Part shown: one piece after another, positions 3,586 through 57,812 of the stretch
How positions within the stretch are numbered: the stretch's first letter is position 1
Layout: every line of letters starts with the position of its first letter
Source of the DNA: Octopus vulgaris
Taxonomy: Eukaryota
Assembly (NCBI GenBank): GCA_951406725.2
Contig: OX597822.1
Location: 110,546,001-110,610,000 of the forward strand
Direction of reading: 5' to 3'
Length of the DNA: 64,000 nt
The notes under the pieces: generated by a model
What the model was told of the DNA's origin: nothing
Databases searched by the model: none
The model's input: the letters and a program-made list of their open reading frames with translations, nothing else
Position numbers and translations under genes: made by a program

Positions 3586-4330
3586 ACGTTTCATCTAGCT
3601 GCAGATCGACAATGATTAAAATGGACTTGAGAAAGGCCTTACTGTTACACACTCCCCCTTACTTTTGGCACAAATACGGTATGCAGTCAATATACAATAG
3701 TGTAAGATTCTTCAAAATATATAAAATATATTTAAACCGTTACATTTCAGCTTGGAGAAAAGTTACCTAACAAAATGATGAGATAAGATAATTTAAGACT
3801 TTTCATAAGTCGTACCAACATACCTGATGGTGGTGTGATGACTTGATATAACTATCTTCGAATTAGCACACCTTTTAAAGCACAAAAGATTAAATATTGC
3901 ATAATATTGTCAGAAATATCGATAAATATAAAAATACCTAAAGTGACAGCGAGTGGTTTTAATGAAAGTTCAATAGACCAGACCTTAATTGTAGAGCCGT
4001 CATATTGGCTACAATATTATAGAGAAACATTGCGGCAGAAAGAGATTTTTATCGACAGGAAATCAATATTACTGCATCTCTAAGTAATATTATCCGTAAA
4101 TTTAATCAATTGCGCTGTTCCATGTTAAAATACGATTAGAAAAAAACAAATAAAACAAATCAAAACAAAAAGGAGATCACTTCTACAAAAAATATGGTTC
4201 AAGTCCAATAAGGTATAGCTTAGTATAGGAATAGGATGAACAATTTTCATAATTATATATCATATCTGCGCATATCTTTATATACATGCATACACACATA
4301 TATACTTACATCTCTCTCTCACCCACTCTT

Positions 4331-4389
<59 letters not shown>

Positions 4390-4415
4390 TATGTATAATA
4401 TACATATATATAACG

Positions 4416-4446
<31 letters not shown>

Positions 4447-5077
4447 ATATATATATATATATATATTTGTTGAAATGGAAAGATGAATTATCTTGTTACG
4501 GATTATTCAAAAGTTTAACCGATACCTGGGTAGCAAAAATCACAGCAGAAAAAACACGGTTGGAGTTATGACCATAGGGTGTTGCAACCGTGCGTTGGCG
4601 CGGATAATTGAAGTTTAATATAATTAGTGAATGGAAGAAATGGAGCTGAACGAAGATTCTACAGAAATCATTTTATTACATTCTACACATGTTTCAAAGG
4701 CCACAAATTTCCAAATTCTGATTGAATAAGGATACCATATTGCAGCTTTCTCTTCAGGAAAATCCAGGAATTACGATGTCCAAACAAAACAAAGGCGCAG
4801 CAAGCAACTCGAACAAGAACGCTCCCTAGGAGCCCATGAAGTGGGGTAAACTGTTTCTTAATGCACGTTGAAATCGAGGGGTTGGTGGAGGCCGAAAAAA
4901 AAGTCCGTTGGAATAAATCAAGGTCAGGCCGCGGTCAAATCTGGTAGGTGAGGAAATAATGAAAACAAGGGGTGTGAAGATATTCTGTGTAACCAAAGTT
5001 ATATATATATATCATATCTGCGCATATCTTTATATACATGCATACACACATATATACTTACATCTCTCTCTCACCCA

Positions 5078-5835
<758 letters not shown>

Positions 5836-8412: not shown

Positions 8413-9043
8413 GAATTAGACTAGTATGAAAAAACTGAAGTGAAATCTAAAAGTATGATAAAAGATATAGTAGTCATATCAGTTGTACATAATACATCAA
8501 CCCCAATGCTTGAATTGTAATACAATGGAATACACTTGTCCCTAAGACAAGAAGGACATGGCCTAAATGTTTCCTTCATTCAAGGTAAAGAGCAAATATA
8601 AAACAGAGACTGAAATGACAACGTGTTCTGAGGAAGAACGAAAAATAGTGCTACGAGTTTTGTAAAAGCTGCAAAACTAAACTAAATATGGGTATATAGA
8701 AATACGATGGAATAGTAATGCGAAGCAAAGCCATTACATGGTTAATATATAAAGCAACTGCAAACAGAGTGAAATTCTATTAGAAAAGTACCCCACAGAG
8801 CTGCAACATTGGCTGAAAAATGCAGAACGTAGAACATAGATTGTGGGGTTCATGCTTACGGCATAGAATGGAAGACTTCCCAAGATATAAGCAAAATACA
8901 TGAAGTAACTGCAGAATATGTGTAGTTTGTTGTTCCATTTTCATTAACTGAAGTCAACGTATTACATTTAGAGATATAATAGAGATGGGGTACTATGTCA
9001 GTCTTATCTAATGTCGATTGGTAGTATAAACATATATTCGAAC

Positions 9044-9524
9044 AATATCAGAGAGGACACAGAAAGTGTGCCTAAAGCCAACTGGAGACGATGATCTCCT
9101 GGGACTAAAAGCTACAGTAACACCCACCCTTAGTGGTTAGACATATTGAGATGGTTAGTATACTTTATGTTGTCGAGCCGTTACTGTTTCCATCTCGTTC
9201 AGAGATTTATTATTGCTTGCAGACAGTTTTTCGAAACCAGTGACGAAAGTTACTGGAAAAAACATTAGATAGATATTTGCAAACAGGTCTCTCTTCATCG
9301 AAAACCGGTGATTACCATACGTTGACAAGAGGCAAATACCTCGAAACTGCAGTCCGTGCGTATCACTTAGGTTTACGAGAGAGGGATGACCTCCCTTTGC
9401 AAATATCATAAGGGCACAGAAAGTGTGCCTAAAGCCAGGTGGAGACGATGATCTCCTGGGGCTAAAAGCTACAGTAACACCCACCCTTAGTGGTTAGCCA
9501 TACTGAGATGGCTAGTATACTTTA
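9044..9524 (+). mobile_element. Retrozyme-like element: about 1.3 units of a 357-bp structured monomer with one hammerhead
   Basis: About 120-bp direct terminal repeat (9044-9167 / 9402-9524, offset 357), internal HHR and multiple hairpins, no ORF. Confidence 0.7.
9318..9358 (+). ncRNA. Type I hammerhead ribozyme, U3-A8 core variant, GUC cleavage triplet
   Basis: TACG-TTGACAA-GAGG(CAAATA)CCTC-GAA-ACTGCAGT-C-CGTG: all three helices formable, stem III palindromic. Confidence 0.8.
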
Positions 9525-18406: not shown

Positions 18407-20500
18407 CAAGTTATTTTATTCCGCACGAGTAGAAATATAGGAAAATTAGAAGTTGAAGATGCACTGGGAATAGTCAAAGTAGTTTTTATTATTATATTTA
18501 AAGATTTAATCGGTTTCACACTTTACATTGACTTTCGAAAAGTTGAAATAGAAGAAGCTGTCTTGATTCTGACTTGTGTTTGAAGCTTCCCCTATTTTTA
18601 TAGGGAGTTCATTGCAAAAATTACTGTATGTTTTGAATAAGATATGATTGGTAGAGGACAGTCAAAATTTTGTAGGTTCCTCGCTACATCCGTGTGTTTG
18701 GATGAAGTGAACATATTTCACGTCGTAAGTTAAGGCTAACACGGTTGACTGAACATGTCCAAACAATCAAGGCTCTGAATGTTTTCTGTCAAGTGTTTGT
18801 AAAGAATGAACCCGTGATTAAGTTGAGAACCTTTTGTATGTTTCCCGCTACGTCCATGCGTTAGTGTCACGTGACAGTATATTTTGTGCCTACAAAGACA
18901 CGTTTGAGCGAACATGTTTAGTTTCAATCAAGGCATTCCAAATTGGAGATTGGACAGGAGTTCTTTGAATGTAATTCAGTGGGTAAAATTTCGGCTGTTA
19001 GCTCTGTTGATTTCTCATGTTAAGTGGCAGAATGAATTTTGTATGTGAATAGTTATTTGTTGATGTACACTGTTAAAGTTTGTGAAGACTTGGTTTGTTC
19101 TTTTGTATGAAAATATTTTCTTTGTTTATCCGTGTTTCATGAGTGGTATTCAATGAACATAGGTAGAGTGGGAAGACCTGGAATTTAGGGTACTTTTTTT
19201 TTGTATTTATATCTATGTATCCACTCAGTGGAATCTGTCTAGTTCTGGTGTCTCGTATTTGTTGTCGGTAAATGATCAGTCTATTTCTTAGAGTAAGCTT
19301 TGTTTGACCTGCGTAATCTTGATTACATGCTTGACATTTGATAGCGTATATTAAATTCCCTGACGAACATAAAATGATTTTTTACAGCAAAAATTTGTCC
19401 TGATTTGAATTTGTATGTTGTGTCTTCAATAAGGTTCGCAATTAGTGCGGCCACACATTTTGACTGTTGGTGTAGGAATTGTGGGGCTTTTATTGTCTTT
19501 TACTTTTGATTATTTTATGTATTTCGCAAGTTTATTTCATCCTTGGGTCTTGTTTTAGAAGTAGGATGTTTGGGTGGATAATATTGTAAACCGCTGTTTC
19601 TTCGGTTGTGTGTTGTAATAAAGGGAAGAGTAATGGATGTATCTGGAGCGTTTTCTTCAATATTTATTCCTTAGGCACATTCTACTCCGTTCCCTATTAA
19701 CATTAATGAATATTGTCTTTTAAGTAGTATTTGCTTTAGTTCCTGGAGTCTTTTATTTCGGGATTCAGGGTTTGAAACAGTTGTGCAGATTCTTCTTGCT
19801 AGATTAAAGAGAATATTATTCTTCGTGTGTTTGGGATGGTATGAGAACAGGAAATATTGTTTAGAATTTGTTTGTTCGGAATGAATATCTGTTTCAATGT
19901 TTTTAACTATTTTGATGATTAGTATATCTAGGAATGGTAGTTGAGTTTTAGTGTATTCCATGGCGAAATTGATATTGTCTATGCTGTAGATTACGTTTTT
20001 GGAATCTATAAGTTGTTTAAATGTGTGCATCCATAGGATCAGGCAGTCATTTAGGTAACGATTCCAGTTTTCTAGTAGGAATTTGTGGAAGTTTAAGCCA
20101 TATTTTAATTTAGATTGTTCACATATTTGAACCTCCATATATACCATGACTAGATTGGCGAAATTTGGAACAACTTTTTGCCACATCGCAATCTCAGATA
20201 TTTGTTTGTAAATATTGCCATCGAAGTCAAAAAGTTGTTTTCAAGAATTAACATTAATCCTTCAGTGATGAAACTCTTTTCAATTATGTCCGTAATTTGA
20301 TGAGGGAGATTTTCAAGCCAGAAATTTATTGACTCTAGTCCATATTGGTGTCGATTGTGGCATTGAAGTTTGCCATGTCAAAAGATACAATAGTGGCATT
20401 ATTTATTATTAATGGATTCTGGGAGGTGGTTTAACAGATTCAGGTCGTCCCTTACGAGATTTCGCATACATTTAAAAATAGGTTTAATATATCAAATATC
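18402..20500 (-). mobile_element. Decayed Penelope-like element (RT + GIY-YIG + 3' region)
   Basis: PNFANLVM..., WNRYLNDCLILW, LPFLDILI, HPKHTKNNILFNLARRICT; downstream NLIYAIKCQACNQDYAGQT (GIY-YIG); 3' end homologous to 51750-52275. Confidence 0.88.
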
Positions 20501-23226: not shown

Positions 23227-23439
23227 TACCTACCTACTTACCTACCTACCTACCTACTTACTTTCATACATACATACATACATACATACATACATACATA
23301 CATAAATACATACGTACATACATACATACATACATGAAAGCATCCACAAACCCAACAACCCTGGCCGCCCCATCATCTCCTCCTGTAACTGCCCCACAGA
23401 GCTCATCTCTAAATACCTCGATCGTGTCCTTGCCCCCTA

Positions 23440-24447
23440 GTGGCATCTCTTCCCTCCCACATCCACGATACCAACCATGCTCTCCGGCTTTTCAACTCTT
23501 TCTCCTTTCCTCCCGGCTCCTCCAAAATCCTTTTTACTATGGACATCCAAAGCCTCTATACTGTTATCCCTCACCACGAAGGACTGCAGGCCCTTCGACA
23601 CTTTCTTGACCTCCGCTCTAACCCTGTACCTGACACCTCCACACTCATTCGTCTGGCCGAACTTGTCCTTACTCTGAACTGCTTCTCGTTCGCGGGCGAG
23701 TTCTACCATCAGGTCTCGGGAGTGGCCATGGGAACGCGAATGGGCCCCAACTATGCGAACCTGTTCGTTGGCTATGTTGAGGCCCAAATATTCTCTAATT
23801 TCACTGGTCCCACTCCTGAACTATATGGTCGTTATATTGACGACATTATCGGTGCCACCTCACTCTCCCGCGAACATCTAGATTCCTTCCTCTCTTTCGT
23901 CCAATCTTTCCATCCAGCCCTCCACTTCACTTCCACTATCTCCAACACCTCTGTCTCCTTCCTCGACATTTCGGTTAGCATTCTTCACTCCACTCTTACC
24001 ACCTCCATTCACTACAAACACACAGACTCACACTCATACCTCAACTTCTCTTCCTCCCACCCAGAACACACCAAGCTTTCCATCCCCTATTCCCAATTCC
24101 TCAGTCTACGTAGGCTCTGTAGTGACGACCATGACTTTGAGACTCAGTCTCAACGTATGTCTCACCACTTCACCCTACGTGGATACCCCCTCACCACTAT
24201 CCACACTGCCCTTGCCAGAGCACGGTCCGTGGACCGTGTATCTGCTCTCTCTCCCCGAACCCGCCCTGTAGTCTCCCGCCTCCCTTTTCCCCTCACTTAC
24301 CACCCCACGACCCTACGTCTCCAACGCACCATTCTTCGAGCTTTCCGTCATCTCCAGTCCGACCCGTCCACTTCACACCTCTTCCCTAACCGACCCCCTC
24401 CCCTCTTTCAAACGAGCCCACAACCTTCGAGACCTTTTGGTCCATAG
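23440..24447 (+). CDS. Penelope-like reverse transcriptase (partial, frameshifted at both ends)
   Basis: MDIQSLYTVIP, GVAMGTRMGPNYANLF, RYIDDI, SFLDI, YKHTDSHSYLNFSSSHP, SIPYSQFL motifs. Confidence 0.93.
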   Translation: MASLPSHIHDTNHALRLFNSFSFPPGSSKILFTMDIQSLYTVIPHHEGLQALRHFLDLRSNPVPDTSTLIRLAELVLTLNCFSFAGEFYHQVSGVAMGTRMGPNYANLFVGYVEAQIFSNFTGPTPELYGRYIDDIIGATSLSREHLDSFLSFVQSFHPALHFTSTISNTSVSFLDISVSILHSTLTTSIHYKHTDSHSYLNFSSSHPEHTKLSIPYSQFLSLRRLCSDDHDFETQSQRMSHHFTLRGYPLTTIHTALARARSVDRVSALSPRTRPVVSRLPFPLTYHPTTLRLQRTILRAFRHLQSDPSTSHLFPNRPPPLFQTSPQPSRPFGP

Positions 24448-24890
24448 CTCCTTCCCTGACCCTACCTCCCAACCCGGCTCGTTCCCCTGCTCCCGCCCAC
24501 GTTGCCGCACTTGCCCTTACCTCTCCAACACCACCCGCCTCACTAGCACCCACCATCGACCCTATCCCTTCATCCACTCCTTCACCTGCACCTCCAGCAA
24601 TATTATCTATTGCATCTCTTGCTCTCTCTGCAATTCCTTGTACATCGGACAAACGGGACGCCGCTTGGCTGACCGGTTCGCGGAACACCTTCGTGACATC
24701 CACCTTGCGAACGACACACCGGTCTCACGCCATTTCCGCTCCACCGGTCACTCCTTGCAACACCTATCTGTGTTCGGTTTGTCCTTACACAGAGGCCATC
24801 CGGATTCCCGTTTGCGCCGTGAACGGGAATTAATCTTCTCTCTTCGCTATTATACGCCATTTGGTCTCAACTCTCCCCCCTCCTCATCTA
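24437..24890 (+). CDS. GIY-YIG endonuclease domain of Penelope-like element (frameshifted from RT)
   Basis: CSRPRCRTC linker, NIIYCISCSLCNSLYIGQTGRRLADRFAEH, RLRRERELI, PFGLN. Confidence 0.92.
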
Positions 24891-50315: not shown

Positions 50316-52275
50316 GCCCTGACAGAATTGAAAAGAATTTCATCACTGAAGGTTTAAAGGTTATTCTCTAAAACAAGTTTTTGACTTCGATGGCAACATT
50401 TACAAATAAACATCTGGGATTGCGATGGGGACAAAAGCTGCTCCAACATACGTCAATCCAGTTATGGCATACGTAGCGGTCCAGTTATACGAACAATCTA
50501 AATTAAAATATGGCTTGAACTGCCACAAATATCTACTAGAAAATTGGAAACGTTACTTAGATCACTGCCTAATCCTATGGACGCACACATTTGTACAGCT
50601 TATAGATTTAAAAAAATCTAATTAACAGCATAAACAATAATATTAATTTTATCATAGAACTCTGTAAAACGCAACTGCTATTCCTGGATATATTAATCAT
50701 TAAAATAGCTAAAAAAAATTAATACAGACATTCACTAGAAACAGATTCTAAACAATACTTTTTGTTCTCCTCATATAATTCCAAACAAACGAAGAATAAT
50801 ATTCCATTTAATCTGACAAGAGGAATCTGCATAACTGTCTCAAACTCTGAAACTCGAAATAAAAGACTACAGGAGCTAAAACAGATACTACTTAAAAGTT
50901 TATATGCATTAATGTTAATAGACAGCGGAATAGAATGTGCCAAAGCAGTAAATATTGAAGAACCACAGAAAACTAAAAACACTCCAGATACATCCAATAC
51001 TCGAACCTTTATTACACACAGAGGTTTACAACATTATCCCCCAGAACATCCCACTAGTTAAACAAGATTCAAGAATGAAACAAGCATGCGAAATGCACAA
51101 AATAATGAAAAGTAAAAGATAAAGTCCCTCAAAAACATCCTCACAAGTGCTAAATTACCTTCCACAATTCCTACAGCAACAGTCAAAAGTATGGCCGCCC
51201 AAATTTCAGGAATTATGGATGATACAACATATAAATTCAAGTCAGGACAGATTTTTACCGTAGAAAAGACACTTTAAATATTCTTTCAGGAATTTATTAT
51301 ACGCTATCAAATGTCAGGAATGTAATGAAGATTACATACGTCAAATAAAGCTCATTCAAAGAAAAAGACTGATCGTTAACCGACAGCAAATACTCGACCT
51401 CAGTACTAGACAGATTTCACTGAGTGGACACATAGACATATGTGCACAAATTAAGTCCACCATATCCCAGGTATTCCCACTCTACCTATGTGCAGCGAAT
51501 GCGACAGATTAAGCACAGATAATCAAAGAAAATACTTTCATACAAATCTATGAACCAAGACTTCCCAAACTCGAACGAGTACAAACACAAATAACTATTG
51601 ACACTCGAAACTCAATCCGGTACTTAAAATCCCATACATTCTGCCACTGGATTACATACAAACGACTCCTGTCCACTCTCCCACAAACAAGGATTAAGTT
51701 TGGAGTGCTTTGATTGTAACTAAACATATTCACTCAACCGGGTCGGTCCTCTTTTTAGGCACAAAGTATGCTGTTACGTAGCACTAACACACGAACATAT
51801 CGGGAGACTTACGAAAGATTATACATTTAATTATGTGTTAATTCTCTACAAAACACTTGACAGAAAGCATTTAGAGCATTGACAGTTTGAACACGCTCAC
51901 TCAACCGTGTCAGCCTTAACTTACGACGGCAAACATCGTCACTTGATACTAAAATACGGACGTAGCAGGCAGCCTACAAAAATTTCTAAGACCAGTCATG
52001 TGACTAACCTCTACAAATCAAATCCTATTCAAAGCATATAGTAATCTGAGCCATGAACTCCCTATAAAAACAGGGAAAGCTTCAAACTCCAGTCGGGACC
52101 AAGACAGCTGCCATATATGCCATGTCTTTCTATTTTAACTTTTGGAATGTCAATGTAAAATGTGAAACCGGTTAATGCTTTAAATGCATGAATAAAAATT
52201 ATTTTAATTATTCTCAGTGCATTTTCAACTACTTCTTCTATATTTCTACCCGCGTGGCATAAAATTACTTTGTTA
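50316..52275 (+). mobile_element. Decayed Penelope-like element (RT + GIY-YIG + terminus), same family as 18402-20500
   Basis: GIAMGTKAAPTYVN, WKRYLDHCLILW, NIPFNLTRGIC, YYAIKCQECNEDYIRQ; TATAAAA and a degenerate HHR (GAAACCGGTT, about 52165) in the 3' region. Confidence 0.88.
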
Positions 52276-53995: not shown

Positions 53996-54201
53996 TTGTA
54001 AAATCAAAATCGCCTTTTTTATAAATATAAATGCATTTATTTTTAAATGAACCTCAGAAACCTGGAAAAGATTGTTATAGGACAAACATTTCGATAGAAG
54101 CATAAGGTTTAATTTCATTATAATTTCGGACAAGTATATAAAACCAAATTGTGTCATATGATTTCAGAGGGCGATATAGAAAATTACTGAGCCTTCATTT
54201 C

Positions 54202-54427
54202 ATTGTTTGCCAACATAGCATAGCAGTCCTGGTTTAGGACGAACGTTGCTGTAATTTAAGCCCCAGGAAACATCGTCTCCAGCTGGCTATACGACACGAT
54301 CTGTGTCCTTATATTTTCCTACAAAGAAATCTTGCATCTCCTGGCAGCTCAAAACAATATCTGTGTATCACGATTTCCGGGTTATTTCCCTTTACCAGTA
54401 CAGAATAATTGTTCGGCTAGAGGCAAA
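54202..54427 (-). mobile_element. Retrozyme-like unit (family 2), HHR at 54360-54404
   Basis: Reverse complement of 56014-56238; TCTGTA-CTGGTAA-A-GGG(AAATAA)CCC-G-GAA-ATCGTGAT-A-CACAGA (core degenerate in this copy). Confidence 0.75.
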
Positions 54428-55380
54428 TTCCTTATTACAATAATGAATATCACATAAAGAGTGGACAATACAGGACAATACACACAAATAATGTTATGAT
54501 AAGTTCGAATATAACTTATGGATTAAAAATATTGATGAAAGATATATATAATATATTCTAAGTTTAGGTTTTTGTGGGCATTATACTCGGTTGCCTCGAA
54601 GGCCCAGCGGCTATTCCTTTCCTTTTTCAAACGAGGATTAAGTAGGGTTATTTGCACCCACCTTTCTTGTCACAGCCTTCCATTTTACTCGAGCTCACTT
54701 TGTGACAGAATTCTCCTCTCCAGCCCTACCGTGCTCTTCAGATGGTGTCTGAACTATAGAAGCAGACCAGGCCCAGAGATGAAGGTTCCCGCCACGAGTC
54801 CTTGCATTCTAGTCTTCCACACGCATTATTTCAATACTGCAACTGTACAGAGGAAACATGCCTCAACTTCCGTTGAGAGTCCAATTGGCGATACAAACAT
54901 TATTATCGATTCAGCTGATAGCTGTTCTCTTCCTAGGTGTGACAATACGTGCTCAACGTAAATTATCAGGCCTGACAGCTTCCAACATTGTACAAGAGCG
55001 TGCTGTACGGTTTCCTCGTCCAGCCTACATCCTGGACATGTCGATGGCACTGACATTCCGTGCTTGGATGACATCTCGCGAACAGGTAAAGCGTTCCTAT
55101 AACACTGCTAGGTCAGGGATGTTTGGTAATTATCCAAATACCCTGGGCTGAAAATTTTTGAAAAAGGTTGGCAAGTTGGTTCTCGTCGAAACCCAGGACG
55201 TCATCGTTTTTACTCTCTGCCAGCCCTTTGTACAAAACCGAGATAGTATTCCCACTGCCGGCCTTGCCCGTCTTGTGGATAAGCACGAGTGCCTGTCGAC
55301 ACTCGTTTTGCCACTCAGTCAGATTACGTCTTTTAATGAAACCGGGTTTGAATCTCTCCAAGGAGGCTGGTCGCGGTAAG
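54428..55380 (-). mobile_element. Tx1/L1-clade LINE 3' fragment (ORF2 C-terminus + 3' UTR)
   Basis: CYRNALPVREMSSKHG...TCPGCRLDEETVQHALVQC (CCHC zinc knuckle)...CVWKTR, typical of Tx1/L1 ORF2 ends. Confidence 0.82.
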
Positions 55381-55689
55381 AATTCTTTCGCCTTATTGAA
55401 AGGTGTTAGAAAGGATATGGTAGATAAGCTTGTGCAATGGAAAGATGTAAAAGTGATAGACATGAAGGGAACGAAAACAGAAAAAATGGTTTTAGGCGCA
55501 TTGCTGCCAAGACACAGGATTAAAATAATAAGAAACGGTAAAGAAAGCGCAGAATACAGACAAATAGTATCGATATAAATGAAGTTCCGGACGGTATAGA
55601 TTATTATAAATTACTGGGCCTAATCAGCATTAACTTTAATTGGATATGAAAGGACGATAATGATGCTGCTGAGATGAGGTAAGTGGCAC

Positions 55690-55810
55690 ATCCTTCATAT
55701 ATCATTATCATGTATCATTCATATTTTTATAATTTTATTTTAATTGTTATATGTCCCCATATGTCTTGTGCTGTCCCCTCTATGTATGATATTTTTATCG
55801 TAATAAATAA
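55690..55810 (+). mobile_element. Second Tx1-like 3' UTR fragment
   Basis: TGTCTTGTGCTGTCCCCTCTATGTATGATATTTTTATCGTAATAAATAA aligns with the reverse complement of 54428-54477; left boundary uncertain. Confidence 0.6.
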
Positions 55811-55833
55811 TTTACCTCTAGCCGAACAATTAT

Positions 55834-55878
55834 TCTGTGTTGATGAAGGGAAATAACCCGGAAATCGTGATACACAGA
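55834..55878 (+). ncRNA. Type I hammerhead ribozyme (UUGAUGA core)
   Basis: TCTGTG-TTGATGA-A-GGG(AAATAA)CCC-G-GAA-ATC(GT)GAT-A-CACAGA; perfect 6-bp stem I. Confidence 0.75.
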
Positions 55879-56036
55879 TATTGTTTTAAGCTGAGTAGGG
55901 ATGCTAGATTCCCTTGTTCCAAAATATAAGGACACAGATCATGTCGTATAGCCAGCTGGAGACGATGTTTCCTGGGGCTAAATTATGTTTTACCTCTAAT
56001 AAATAATAAATAATTTACCTCTGGCCGAACAACTAT

Positions 56037-56081
56037 TCTGTACTGGTGAAGGGAAATAACCCAGAAATCGTGATACACAGA
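56037..56081 (+). ncRNA. Type I hammerhead ribozyme motif (CUGGUGA core)
   Basis: TCTGTA-CTGGTGA-A-GGG(AAATAA)CCC-A-GAA-ATCGTGAT-A-CACAGA. Confidence 0.68.
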
Positions 56082-57347
56082 TATTCTTTTAAGCTGAGTG
56101 GGGATCCCAGATTCCCTTATAGGAGAATATAAGGACACAGATCGTGTCTTATAGCTAGCTGGAGACGATGTCTTCTGGGGCTAAATTACATCAACATTCG
56201 TCCTAAACCAGGACTGCCATGCTATGTTGGCAAACAATCTTTACTCCAAAGTACTGTTGCTGAATATCTCTCGAGAGATTTTAAAATAGTAATTTTCTAA
56301 CTTCATTTCATTATTCCGAATAATTTTTTTCCCAAAATCTGACTATTCACTGTTAGTACGTAATTTTCCTACTTTCGCATTTGAAATCTATTGAAATGGT
56401 CTCTAATTTCGAACTTTACATGAAATACTAATGGTATACTAGTGGTGTACTGTACAGCGATCGACTGCATTCCTTTTCTGATTATACCTAGTCCGATATC
56501 ATACCTAGTTCGTAGCCATTATTTCATCCGCCTTCAGTCAGTAACATAAAGGCTGCAGTTCTGAAGCTGATTAAATCGGCACAGAATCTAATGTGTGTAG
56601 CCGGGGGTACAAAATTTAGAAGCAATTGTTATATCGTTTCAGGAACTTGTATCCAACATGTAACATCATTAAATATTAATGTGCTGAAAACTGTCTGTAA
56701 CAATTAGATAATTTTAATTAGATTTTTCCTAATACAAAGTCGCCATTATTGAAAGTGTATTATGCTAGGCTGAACAACAATATATCAAACGTTGGTGAAA
56801 CACATGTACGATACGTGTACATTGTACTAAACAATAAGTGTCAAAATGTTTATCATCATCAATAAGTCTTACAGAATATTTTTAGTTTTGTACGAGCGAA
56901 GGAGATGAAGTAATAACATAACATTTTCTACAGAACAAGTTATTAACAGTTAATAAGCTTTAGTACAATGTAAATGGTTAGATGGCTCCTGAAGTAGAAC
57001 ATTTCTCTCATAATATTTGGATCCGTGTCGACCTGTGTTCAAACCCTGCTTACTCTACTATTAGCAAAATAGCGACTGATTATATTACAAAGCACGCTTG
57101 GAAGTTTCACCTTTACACAGTCCTTCGCAATCCTTTAGCCAGCATCCATTCCCTTTTATGGGCTAAAATGTGTGTGTAATTATTGCTCTTTATCTACTCG
57201 TTGCTTGTATTCCCCATTAAACCCCTTATCTGTTAGGGCTCATGAATCATACCGGGTATATTTTTAACTCCTGAACTCTGGAAGCCAGAAAAAAAAATGG
57301 TGTGTATTACTTTTCAGAATAAGTAAAAAAAAATCAAAAAGTACATA

Positions 57348-57540
57348 GACGCAGGAGTCACTGTGTGATAAGTAGCTTACTAACCAACCACACGGTTCCG
57401 GGTTCAGTTCCACTGTGTGGCACCTTGGTCCGACAAAACCCTCGTGAGTGGATTTGGTAGACGGACACTGAAAGAAGCCCGTCATATATAAATATTATCC
57501 CTTAGTGAGTTGATTCCACAACCCCTAACTTACTTGTTGT

Positions 57541-57571
<31 letters not shown>

Positions 57572-57812
57572 ATGTGTGTGTGCGTGTATGTGTGTGTGTG
57601 TGCGTCTGTGTTTGTGTGTCTGTGTTTGTCCCCACACCAACGCTTGGCAACCGATGCTGGTGTGTTTACTTAGCGGTTCGGTAAAACCGACCGATAGAAC
57701 AAGTACTAAGCTTACAAAGAATAAGTCCTGGGGTCGATTTGTTCAACTCAAGGCGGTGCTCCAGCATAGTCGCAGTCAAATGACTGAAACAAGTAAAAGA
57801 ATAAAAGAATAA
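57348..57812 (+). mobile_element. SINE family A copy
   Basis: Head, microsatellite and tail with (AATAAAAG)n end. Confidence 0.9.

Follow-up and report, generated by a model that had tools for sequence, protein, structure and literature searches.

L1/Tx1-group LINEs inserted at a fixed site of hammerhead retrozymes in the Octopus vulgaris genome

A head-to-head retrozyme insertion with a truncated LINE in each arm

The window, a 64,000-nucleotide stretch of the Octopus vulgaris genome, carries at positions 54193-56312 a single head-to-head insertion of a hammerhead retrozyme, with a truncated LINE in each arm and its middle lost. The insertion is bounded by an exact 12-bp target site duplication (TSD; CTTCATTTCATT), a 12-mer found exactly twice in the window, with a left copy at 54193..54204 (plus strand), which shares its final 3 nt with the end of unit 1, and a right copy at 56301..56312 (plus strand). 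The inverted arm holds family-A retrozyme unit 1 (54202..54424, minus strand), running from the target site to unit position ~226, with a core at 54398 mutated to CTGGTAA and a predicted cleavage after 54366. It is preceded by LINE-a (54425..55389, minus strand), a 5'-truncated and decayed L1/Tx1-group 3' end comprising the ORF2 C-terminus with its zinc knuckle, the 3' UTR, and an AATAA tail. LINE-a matched bases 4166-5103 of the full-length copy L125 at 82% identity, and zf-RVT was found in the homologous frames of L125 and L133. Comparison with L063, L064, and L125 placed a 5'-to-5' junction with 3-4 nt of microhomology at 55389..55392, beyond which lies LINE-b (55390..55813, plus strand), the 3'-terminal 424 nt of an element from a second family, whose tail is related to that of LINE-a. 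LINE-b is, we infer, probably a short derivative with ORF1 only, and its three closest copies elsewhere, among the matches listed, likewise sit at the family-A site. Unit 2 (55814..55985, plus strand; core TTGATGA at 55840, predicted cleavage after 55872) is broken at unit position 175 and is followed by a duplicated tail/target junction (55986..56016, plus strand), which repeats the unusual tail variant of the unit-2 junction and lacks the upstream half-site. Unit 3 (56017..56303, plus strand; core at 56043 mutated to CTGGTGA, predicted cleavage after 56075) extends to unit position ~290 and bears a one-sided "tail" of ~55 nt. The three units are 88-89% alike, and all three cores are mutated.

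An earlier note on the window had described three hammerhead units, one on the minus and two on the plus strand, each with a LINE-type tail directly before it on the same strand, and had read the minus-strand piece as an ORF2 C-terminus with its UTR. Both descriptions were confirmed, the second by the match to L125. The units had been placed as starting at a TTT 23 nt before stem I; this distance is correct from the TTT, but these three bases are part of the LINE tail (AATAAARARTT plus 1 nt), and the units start at 54424 (minus strand), 55814, and 56017. The second UTR, seen as homologous to the first, does have a related tail but belongs to a distinct element, LINE-b, joined 5'-to-5' to LINE-a at ~55389-55392. 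In place of the tail-only insert with a 9-bp TSD proposed before unit 3, we found the duplicated junction: the sequence upstream is the broken unit 2 with no target half, and the 9-bp repeat includes bases of the tail itself.

The window junctions are not independent, because they belong to one head-to-head insertion with a 12-bp TSD (54193/56301) and share private variants. Units 1 and 3 have in common variants present in only 2 of 51-62 copies, and each of the three junctions in the window has a final T, as does only 1 of 22 others. Together with the duplicated junction, these features led us to reject three independent insertions. The possibility that the arms derive from one insertion plus local duplication, which the earlier note had named as a reason to abandon its reading, thus holds in part for the window and leaves the genome-wide targeting unaffected.

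The hammerhead unit and its empty sites

The hammerhead unit is a non-LTR retrozyme of ~350 bp that has no ORF and is mostly found empty of LINE, with tandem periods of 350 (family A), ~357 (family B), and 362 bp (family G). The empty arrays that the earlier note had proposed to look for were thereby found, and the family-A empty site reads GCGCC^ACCTCTAGCC. Based on the motif, stems read by eye, and folds, a type I hammerhead core with stems I-II and a palindromic minimal stem III was recognized in families A, B, C, F, G, and H. The core CTGATGA is retained in 38 of 51 family-A copies, and in this family an A faces a G at the base of stem II. The fold of family G shows the three stems and a U3-A8 variant of the core (z -2.6). 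An Rfam scan of the window returned nothing at gathering score, including at the three mutated hammerhead copies, and a tRNA scan of it found none. Family-A reads were plentiful in three RNA runs (unstranded, mostly <95% alike) and showed no pile-up of ends at the cleavage position.

Most empty retrozyme loci (29/39) are arranged head-to-head, and a 9-16-bp flanking repeat was observed for 17 of these 29 insertions compared to 37 of 1,482 mismatched pairs. In 17 of 20 family-A head-to-head insertions, one arm ends at ~235 and the other at ~290, and the window follows the same pattern. Insertions of the Penelope type are described as having an inverted 5'-truncated arm, a one-sided tail, and a TSD of ~8-16 bp (PMC3846280; 10.1101/2021.04.23.441226). 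Judging by the shared structure of inverted arms, one-sided tail, and TSD, the octopus retrozymes spread by a Penelope-type route.

LINE insertion at the retrozyme site

With a LINE-only query, for which 30 loci were extracted out of 44 matches, the retrozyme site lay directly after the LINE tail at 26 of 29 non-self loci. The 3' flanks of the LINE copies, whose tabulation the earlier note had proposed, are thus not random. The insertion point precedes the hammerhead core by 24-32 nt and the cleavage position by 56-62 nt, and the TSD measures 14-19 bp. LINE insertions were found in at least seven diverged retrozyme families; the distance from insertion point to core is conserved across families that are only ~70% alike, the downstream ribozyme is always left intact, and LINEs re-insert in tandem at the same site. 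The full-length copies with a TSD that had been predicted were also found, with retrozyme sequence on both sides, the older ones being L125, L128, and L133 in families A and B; L044 is a truncated copy with a TSD in family C. The loci sampled are the best matches listed from each search, and the counts hold for those rather than as a census; as extracted, L233 lacks the start of its C2 array. Most 5'-truncated copies have neither an upstream half-site nor a TSD, a loss that plain target-primed reverse transcription does not predict.

The clearest case is a young subfamily of 5,358 bp with an intact ORF2 of 1140 aa. All 19 of its exact tails are followed by a family-G retrozyme starting at base 1-2, and the same TSD of 16-17 bp recurs at 12 of its 5' junctions; family G provides 1,101 exact empty sites against none for the reversed control. 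Together with the 26 of 29 loci above, the single site used by these 19 tails supports the central proposal of the earlier note, a Tx1-like LINE that inserts at one defined nucleotide of a hammerhead retrozyme. LINE targeting of the retrozyme holds genome-wide, although the window is a poor witness to it.

The LINEs are 5.1-5.4 kb long and encode an ORF1 with a CCHC knuckle upstream of an ORF2 with an APE-RT-zinc knuckle layout. The intact ORF2 of L227 contains Exo_endo_phos (2.5e-14), RVT_1 (9.7e-33), and zf-RVT (3.6e-10) domains, the 512-aa ORF1 of the young subfamily contains zf-CCHC (3e-05), and the window LINE copy is 77% identical to the L227 ORF2 over 757 nt. For P0002, a full-length homologue, the best match among solved structures was human L1 ORF2 (E 3e-70, versus 4e-25 for R2). 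The nearest named match is a Danio "pol-like protein", BAC82613.1, to which the intact ORF2 is 29% identical over 853 aa. We take this accession to be one of Kojima and Fujiwara's Tx1-group entries, and a literature search for its clade label brought no confirmation. Domain layout and the RT match to L1 place the LINEs in the L1/Tx1 group, and Tx1-like is a putative label that follows from group-level domains and site-specific insertion.

Retrozyme targeting is specific to certain subfamilies and not clade-wide. Among the matches listed from a protein search, 4 of 28 loci were at the retrozyme site and 18 belonged to a young 1148-aa subfamily with a different target; those listed for LINE-b comprised 28 distinct loci, of which family A accounted for only 3, a tRNA-like SINE for 11, and a mariner ORF for 5. 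The targets of the sister subfamilies (the SINE, the mariner ORF, and another LINE-like repeat) contain no ribozyme. In a LINE tree, the target label requires 9 changes among 32 rows, with one starred clade combining targets C, A, and E and another B, C, and A (L104, L143, and L155, for which the aligned stretch is missing, are omitted, and three rows were cut without a located junction). Because target labels are mixed within clades, targets are chosen and not merely inherited. By analogy with L1/Tx1 biology, the APE domain would nick the bottom strand at the retrozyme site and prime reverse transcription, and LINE subfamilies would have shifted their specificity as retrozyme families turned over. 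Very probably, then, the abundant hammerhead retrozymes serve as a multicopy safe haven for a radiation of sequence-specific L1/Tx1-group LINEs and for their short derivatives with ORF1 alone.

Two other views of the unit were weighed against this one. Many truncated copies show just a LINE followed by the unit with no upstream half-site, as would be seen if the unit were the LINE's own 3' end or if one old insertion had been copied repeatedly. However, the empty tandem arrays and the 1,101 exact empty G sites, the TSD on both sides of full-length copies, and the occurrence of one LINE clade in several unit families and of several LINE families in a single one make this view extremely improbable; the empty sites and TSDs refute the unit as the LINE's own 3' end. 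It is also unlikely, although less so, that the unit is no free retrozyme but belongs to an autonomous Penelope element as its terminal repeat (pLTR). Inverted arms, a one-sided tail, a 9-16-bp TSD, insertion in microsatellites, and a minimal type I hammerhead are all pLTR traits, and animal retrozymes have been proposed to derive from pLTRs (bioRxiv 2026.07.22.740005). Against it, none of 25 GIY-YIG loci (of 6,136 candidates) contained a match to units of families A-D that could reveal a Penelope partner, matches to Penelope protein were limited to 3 of 161 loci (besides unrelated places in the window) with no visible pLTR arrangement, and the units form perfect tandem arrays without an ORF. 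The targeting result stands whether the unit is a free retrozyme or a pLTR.

Possible ribozyme use and hitch-hiking, and known systems

R2 elements combine a restriction-like endonuclease with their own 5' HDV-like ribozyme and, like the octopus LINEs, insert site-specifically in a co-transcribed tandem repeat. R2 encodes its ribozyme, whereas in octopus the target supplies the ribozyme, a candidate for use by the LINE. The earlier note had suggested that the LINE borrows the flanking hammerheads to free its RNA from a co-transcript, as R2 does with its own. The downstream ribozyme that is never disrupted, its conserved distance to the insertion point, the family-G fold, and full-length LINEs flanked by ribozymes both upstream and downstream (L128, L225, L228, L230, L234) would fit such a dependence. 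We nevertheless consider it rather unlikely and so far unsupported, as the LINE carries its own 5' UTR and AATAAA tail, LINE-TSD-LINE tandems occur without a ribozyme (L122, L123, L043, L236), no ribozyme lies upstream of many full-length copies (L133, L134, L135, L226), sister subfamilies prosper in ribozyme-free targets, and the window cores are mutated. In a weak test at the old family-A locus L133, RNA from three raw runs and one contig set (unstranded, possibly from another species) showed no pile-up of ends at the ribozyme; empty-site joints were present in all three runs and LINE depth was low.

Re-mobilization of the LINE along with retrozyme RNA would add to site-specific targeting and not replace it. 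Here, a LINE inside a retrozyme would be copied as cargo by Penelope-type machinery, LINE and downstream unit forming one RNA or circle, and the window would be such a re-insertion; Penelope terminal repeats are described as mobilizing captured sequence in trans (PMC3846280). The data suggest this process, to which we give somewhat less than an even chance. Pointing toward it are the head-to-head LINE composites of the window and L138, with exact 12- and 14-bp flanking repeats and a one-sided tail, the rare variants and T-ended junctions shared within the window, and the monomer right after the LINE in L225, L231, and L232, which differs in haplotype from its neighbors. Moreover, the truncated LINE of L232 meets an empty multimer in inverted orientation at a 7-nt microhomology, and L229 and L239/L245, on different contigs, have a distinctive unit haplotype in common. 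However, the window arms hold two different LINE families, the arms of L138 share no rare variant, two-site empty head-to-head pairs are common, L229 shows that separate hits on both arms are possible, and some variants may stem from misassembly. In L227-L230, one haplotype is found on either side of the LINE, as both models permit. The missing upstream half-site, considered as proof of Penelope re-mobilization, was weakened by the SINE-targeting control, in which truncated copies kept the half-site in L089 only and not in six others (L080-L083, L085, L088), so this asymmetry is not specific. With boundaries set by BLAST, 2 of 34 LINE composites showed a unique flanking repeat of at least 12 bp, 2 more lie in uninformative TA runs, and the remaining 30 stayed at background apart from one TA-rich repeat of 10 nt.

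For the window itself, we see an even chance that two LINE RNPs invaded both outward-facing sites of an existing insertion, and a somewhat smaller one that LINE-laden retrozyme RNA was re-inserted by Penelope machinery. More tentatively, a three-tier parasite system is conceivable, in which LINEs tracked retrozyme families at a ribozyme-fixed site since that site lets the LINE join the retrozyme RNA cycle, be freed by flanking hammerheads as linear or circular RNA, and be dispersed by Penelope RT with a fresh target copy.

Dewa and Mutsu target tRNA and 5S arrays, and TSDs in the Tx1 group are 15-20 bp. Keno, Kibi, and Koshi target U2 snRNA and microsatellites (PMC4494074). These five resemble the octopus LINEs in their sequence-specific insertion in multicopy sequence and tandem re-insertion, but the octopus target is a selfish ribozyme repeat and not a host RNA gene or microsatellite. 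Tx1L of Xenopus laevis targets Tx1D, and the crocodilian Tx1-Mar, Tx1-8_Crp, Tx1-4_AMi, and Tx1-9_AMi target Mariner-N4, LTR elements, and Harbinger (PMC4494074). As far as that text describes them, they are likewise APE-type LINEs with a preferred site inside a mobile element and sister families with other targets. In octopus, however, the target is a hammerhead retrozyme, the insertion point keeps its position with respect to the ribozyme in at least seven diverged target families, and the host element is itself an RNA-mobilized repeat that may carry the LINE. Known metazoan non-LTR retrozymes are tandemly repeated units of 170-400 bp that carry a type I hammerhead, lack an ORF, and are probably linked to Penelope, and the accessible portions of these sources mention no Tx1 or LINE insertions into them (PMC7229834; bioRxiv 10.64898/2026.07.22.740005); cephalopods are absent from the accessible text of the preprint (0 term matches). 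A literature search returned no account of hammerhead retrozymes or pLTRs serving as LINE targets, and subscription journals, Repbase entries, or supplements might contain one, for example behind the "Sat" targets listed among Tx1 targets in the legend of Fig. 3 of PMC4494074.

The hammerhead retrozyme is thus a new kind of target for a LINE group already known for precise insertion, and ribozyme-bearing mobile RNA joins the target list of sequence-specific LINEs. The LINEs carry closely related APE endonucleases, of which intact copies exist, and their targets range from seven retrozyme families to a SINE, a mariner ORF, and a LINE-like repeat, a natural series in which the encoding of APE specificity and its change can be studied. 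The young pair of 5,358-bp LINE and family-G retrozyme allows tests of whether a retroelement can exploit the ribozyme of another and whether Penelope machinery carries multi-kilobase cargo within retrozyme RNA. For repeat annotators, consensus building will fuse the LINE and retrozyme elements. Finally, L134, L135, and L084 are short derivatives that, like HAL1 (half-L1; PMC5753468), retain only ORF1 and a LINE-like tail and, unlike it, share the site specificity of their autonomous partners.

LINE junctions in hammerhead retrozymes

The family A unit, ~350 bp long, occurs in tandem arrays and is mostly empty; a first look gave 1,824 candidates in the genome, and the empty site is GCGCC^ACCTCTAGCC. 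The unit's type I hammerhead combines the core and stems I and II with a stem III that is minimal and palindromic. The related families B, C, D, F, G, and H can be aligned along their length (A and B at 70%), and family E was assigned by alignment only. When LINE sequence alone was used as the query, a retrozyme site directly followed the tail in 26 of the 29 non-self loci examined (family A, five; B, nine; C, seven; D and E, one each; a half-site and then another LINE, three); the others comprised two without their 3′ end and one with a different flank. Full-length LINEs of 5.0–5.2 kb (L125, L128, and L133) lie between two unit halves with a target-site duplication (TSD) of about 16–19 bp. 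A truncated LINE in family C (L044) and the ORF1-only, 1.7-kb L134 also lie between unit halves with a TSD, as does L135, with a shorter repeat. The junction is 25–26 nt before the core in A, B, and C, about 24–26 nt in H and F, and 32 nt in G, and site sequences differ among families despite similar spacing. When 32 LINE 3′ ends were placed on a tree, target labels were clustered (9 changes versus a shuffled mean of 16.4), and starred clades contained mixed labels. L134 and L135, together with L091, L113, and L140, are HAL1-like short elements with a CCHC-like knuckle in ORF1 and no ORF2, which occupy the same retrozyme site in both family A and family B. At L043, at least four internally deleted LINE copies are stacked within a single family B site.

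A protein search located a young subfamily of 5,358 bp, whose copies are 98–99.9% alike; ORF1 encodes 512 aa, and ORF2 encodes 1140 aa that include APE, RT, and a zinc knuckle. Its exact tail occurs 19 times in the genome, followed by family G at base 1–2 in 19/19; 12 5′ junctions share the same TSD of 16–17 bp, and 1,101 exact empty family G sites were found, versus 0 for a reversed control. Young intact LINEs in family G (L225–L232 and L234–L248; e.g., G000:C15:61018000-61027900) are the best experimental material. Tandems have periods of 5,374 and 5,735 bp, and one array spans C2:73046800-73068800. At one locus (L229:338–419), a 69-nt LINE tail with a 9-bp duplication lies in the inverted arm, and the direct arm holds a full-length copy.

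These counts bear out the claim of an earlier note that a Tx1-like LINE targets a hammerhead retrozyme at a fixed nucleotide, and its expectations of non-random 3′ flanks, of units occurring without the LINE, and of full-length copies with retrozyme on both sides and a TSD were likewise upheld. Because of the fixed-site junctions, TSDs, empty sites, and mixed-target tree, the hammerhead unit is the LINE's target and not its own 3′ end. Tx1 elements targeting other mobile elements are already known, according to the available part of PMC4494074. No hammerhead retrozyme or Penelope terminal repeat was described as a LINE target in the literature searched, which excluded Repbase and supplements, nor in the available parts of the retrozyme papers and of an octopus repeat annotation (PMC13282606). 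The hammerhead retrozyme would thus be new as the target of a Tx1-type, mobile-element-targeting LINE.

Structure and history of the window locus

The window (G000:C9:110546001-110610000) holds three hammerhead-bearing units (54202–54424, minus strand; 55814–55985 and 56017–56303, plus strand) with 88–89% mutual likeness by sequence comparison, each preceded by a LINE-type tail in the same orientation. By their predicted features these units are retrozymes; the CTGATGA core, kept in 38/51 family A copies, is altered in all three. The only close named homologue was in Argonauta hians (70%). LINE-a (54425–55389, minus strand), a decayed ORF2 C-terminus with UTR, meets LINE-b (55390–55813, plus strand), of a second LINE family, 5′ to 5′ through 3–4 nt of microhomology. 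The whole 2.1-kb structure is evidently one head-to-head retrozyme insertion, since an exact 12-bp repeat bounds it (54193–54204 and 56301–56312) and its arms terminate at unit positions ~226 and ~290. A second head-to-head LINE composite of this type (L138) has a 14-bp flanking repeat.

The three window junctions did not prove independent: they share one bounded insertion, units 1 and 3 have in common three variants (one in the catalytic core) absent elsewhere among 51–62 copies, and T is the last base at 3/3 window junctions versus 1/22 elsewhere. The third case, described in the earlier note as a tail-only insert with a 9-bp TSD, was rejected as a separate insertion. It has no half-site upstream, and its tail shows the same variant as that of junction 2, so it is a duplicated junction.

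Empty retrozyme insertions look Penelope-made, judging from their arrangement. Head-to-head copies made up 29/39, and a 9–16-bp flanking repeat was found in 17/29 of these versus 37/1,482 mismatched pairs and 1/10 single-arm loci; in family A, 17/20 paired an arm ending at about 235 with one ending at about 290. This asymmetry corresponds to the one-sided tail, a Penelope trait in the available parts of its descriptions (PMC3846280; 10.1101/2021.04.23.441226). Decayed Penelope-like ORFs with RT and GIY-YIG matches lie in the window at 19070–20488 (minus strand), 23366–24835, and 50380–51593 (both plus strand), and no autonomous partner carrying a unit of families A–D was found among 25 GIY-YIG loci. 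Intact 781-aa frames are present in a young Penelope family (L168, L173, and many other genomic places), which has repeated TGATGACGTC blocks in its 3′ region, where a scan found no canonical hammerhead core.

Two LINE RNPs may have entered two outward-facing sites of an existing retrozyme insertion, whose middle was then lost. We give this history an even chance: the window contains two LINE families, retrozyme pairs with two sites are common, and L229 carries separate hits in both arms. LINE-laden retrozyme RNA could instead have been put back into the genome via a Penelope route, a course we rate somewhat short of evens. It is consistent with the shared window junction base, with the young loci L225, L231, and L232, where the monomer directly following the LINE has a foreign haplotype, and with the truncated LINE of L232 joined to an inverted empty multimer via 7-nt microhomology. 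Most truncated LINE copies lack the upstream half-site; this would fit the Penelope route, but the same lack in the SINE-targeting family weakens it as support.

Possible ribozyme borrowing and sister targets

The earlier note also proposed that the LINE borrows the flanking ribozymes. The geometry permits this: insertion spares the downstream ribozyme (cleavage position 56–62 nt past the junction), L128, L225, L228, L230, and L234 have one upstream as well, and family G, which has a U3-A8 core variant and is located in TA runs, has the predicted fold expected of a hammerhead. Dependence on hammerheads for RNA processing is nevertheless unlikely, given the LINE's own UTR and AATAAA, ribozyme-free LINE tandems, sister subfamilies with ribozyme-free targets, and full-length copies without an upstream ribozyme. 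RNA reads on the old family A locus L133, a weak test with unstranded libraries, showed no end pile-up at the ribozyme. A three-tier reading, in which the LINE would track retrozymes, be released by hammerheads, and be dispersed with its target by Penelope RT, is offered tentatively.

Retrozyme targeting is confined to some LINE subfamilies. The 28 distinct loci found with LINE-b divided into family A (3), a tRNA-like SINE (11), a mariner ORF (5), and elsewhere (9); SINE insertions use a fixed site near the SINE head, with a TSD of about 14–15 bp. Among the matches listed, 28 protein-search loci comprised 18 of a second young subfamily (ORF2, 1148 aa), 4 retrozyme sites or half-sites, and 6 elsewhere. 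This 1148-aa subfamily (L189–L214 and L217–L224; e.g., G000:C5:29.18–29.21 Mb and C9:59.21–59.25 Mb) forms long head-to-tail arrays with a period of 5,277 bp and a 14-nt spacer. The repeat that it targets resembles the 5′ terminus of a different LINE-like element, and no hammerhead was seen in it at the inspected loci. By analogy with the available part of PMC4494074, the family set resembles a Tx1-type radiation with target switching.

The window also contains tandem family F hammerhead retrozymes (9000–9520; period about 355 bp) and an empty tRNA-like SINE copy (57348–57800). Elsewhere, L204 carries a LINE at the family F site equivalent to that in other retrozyme families, and L080–L090 hold an ORF1-only element of about 1.45 kb at a fixed site of the abundant tRNA-like SINE. 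At L071, L072, L074, L076, and L078, a sister-family tail is followed, by eye, by a constant position inside a mariner/Tc1 transposase ORF.
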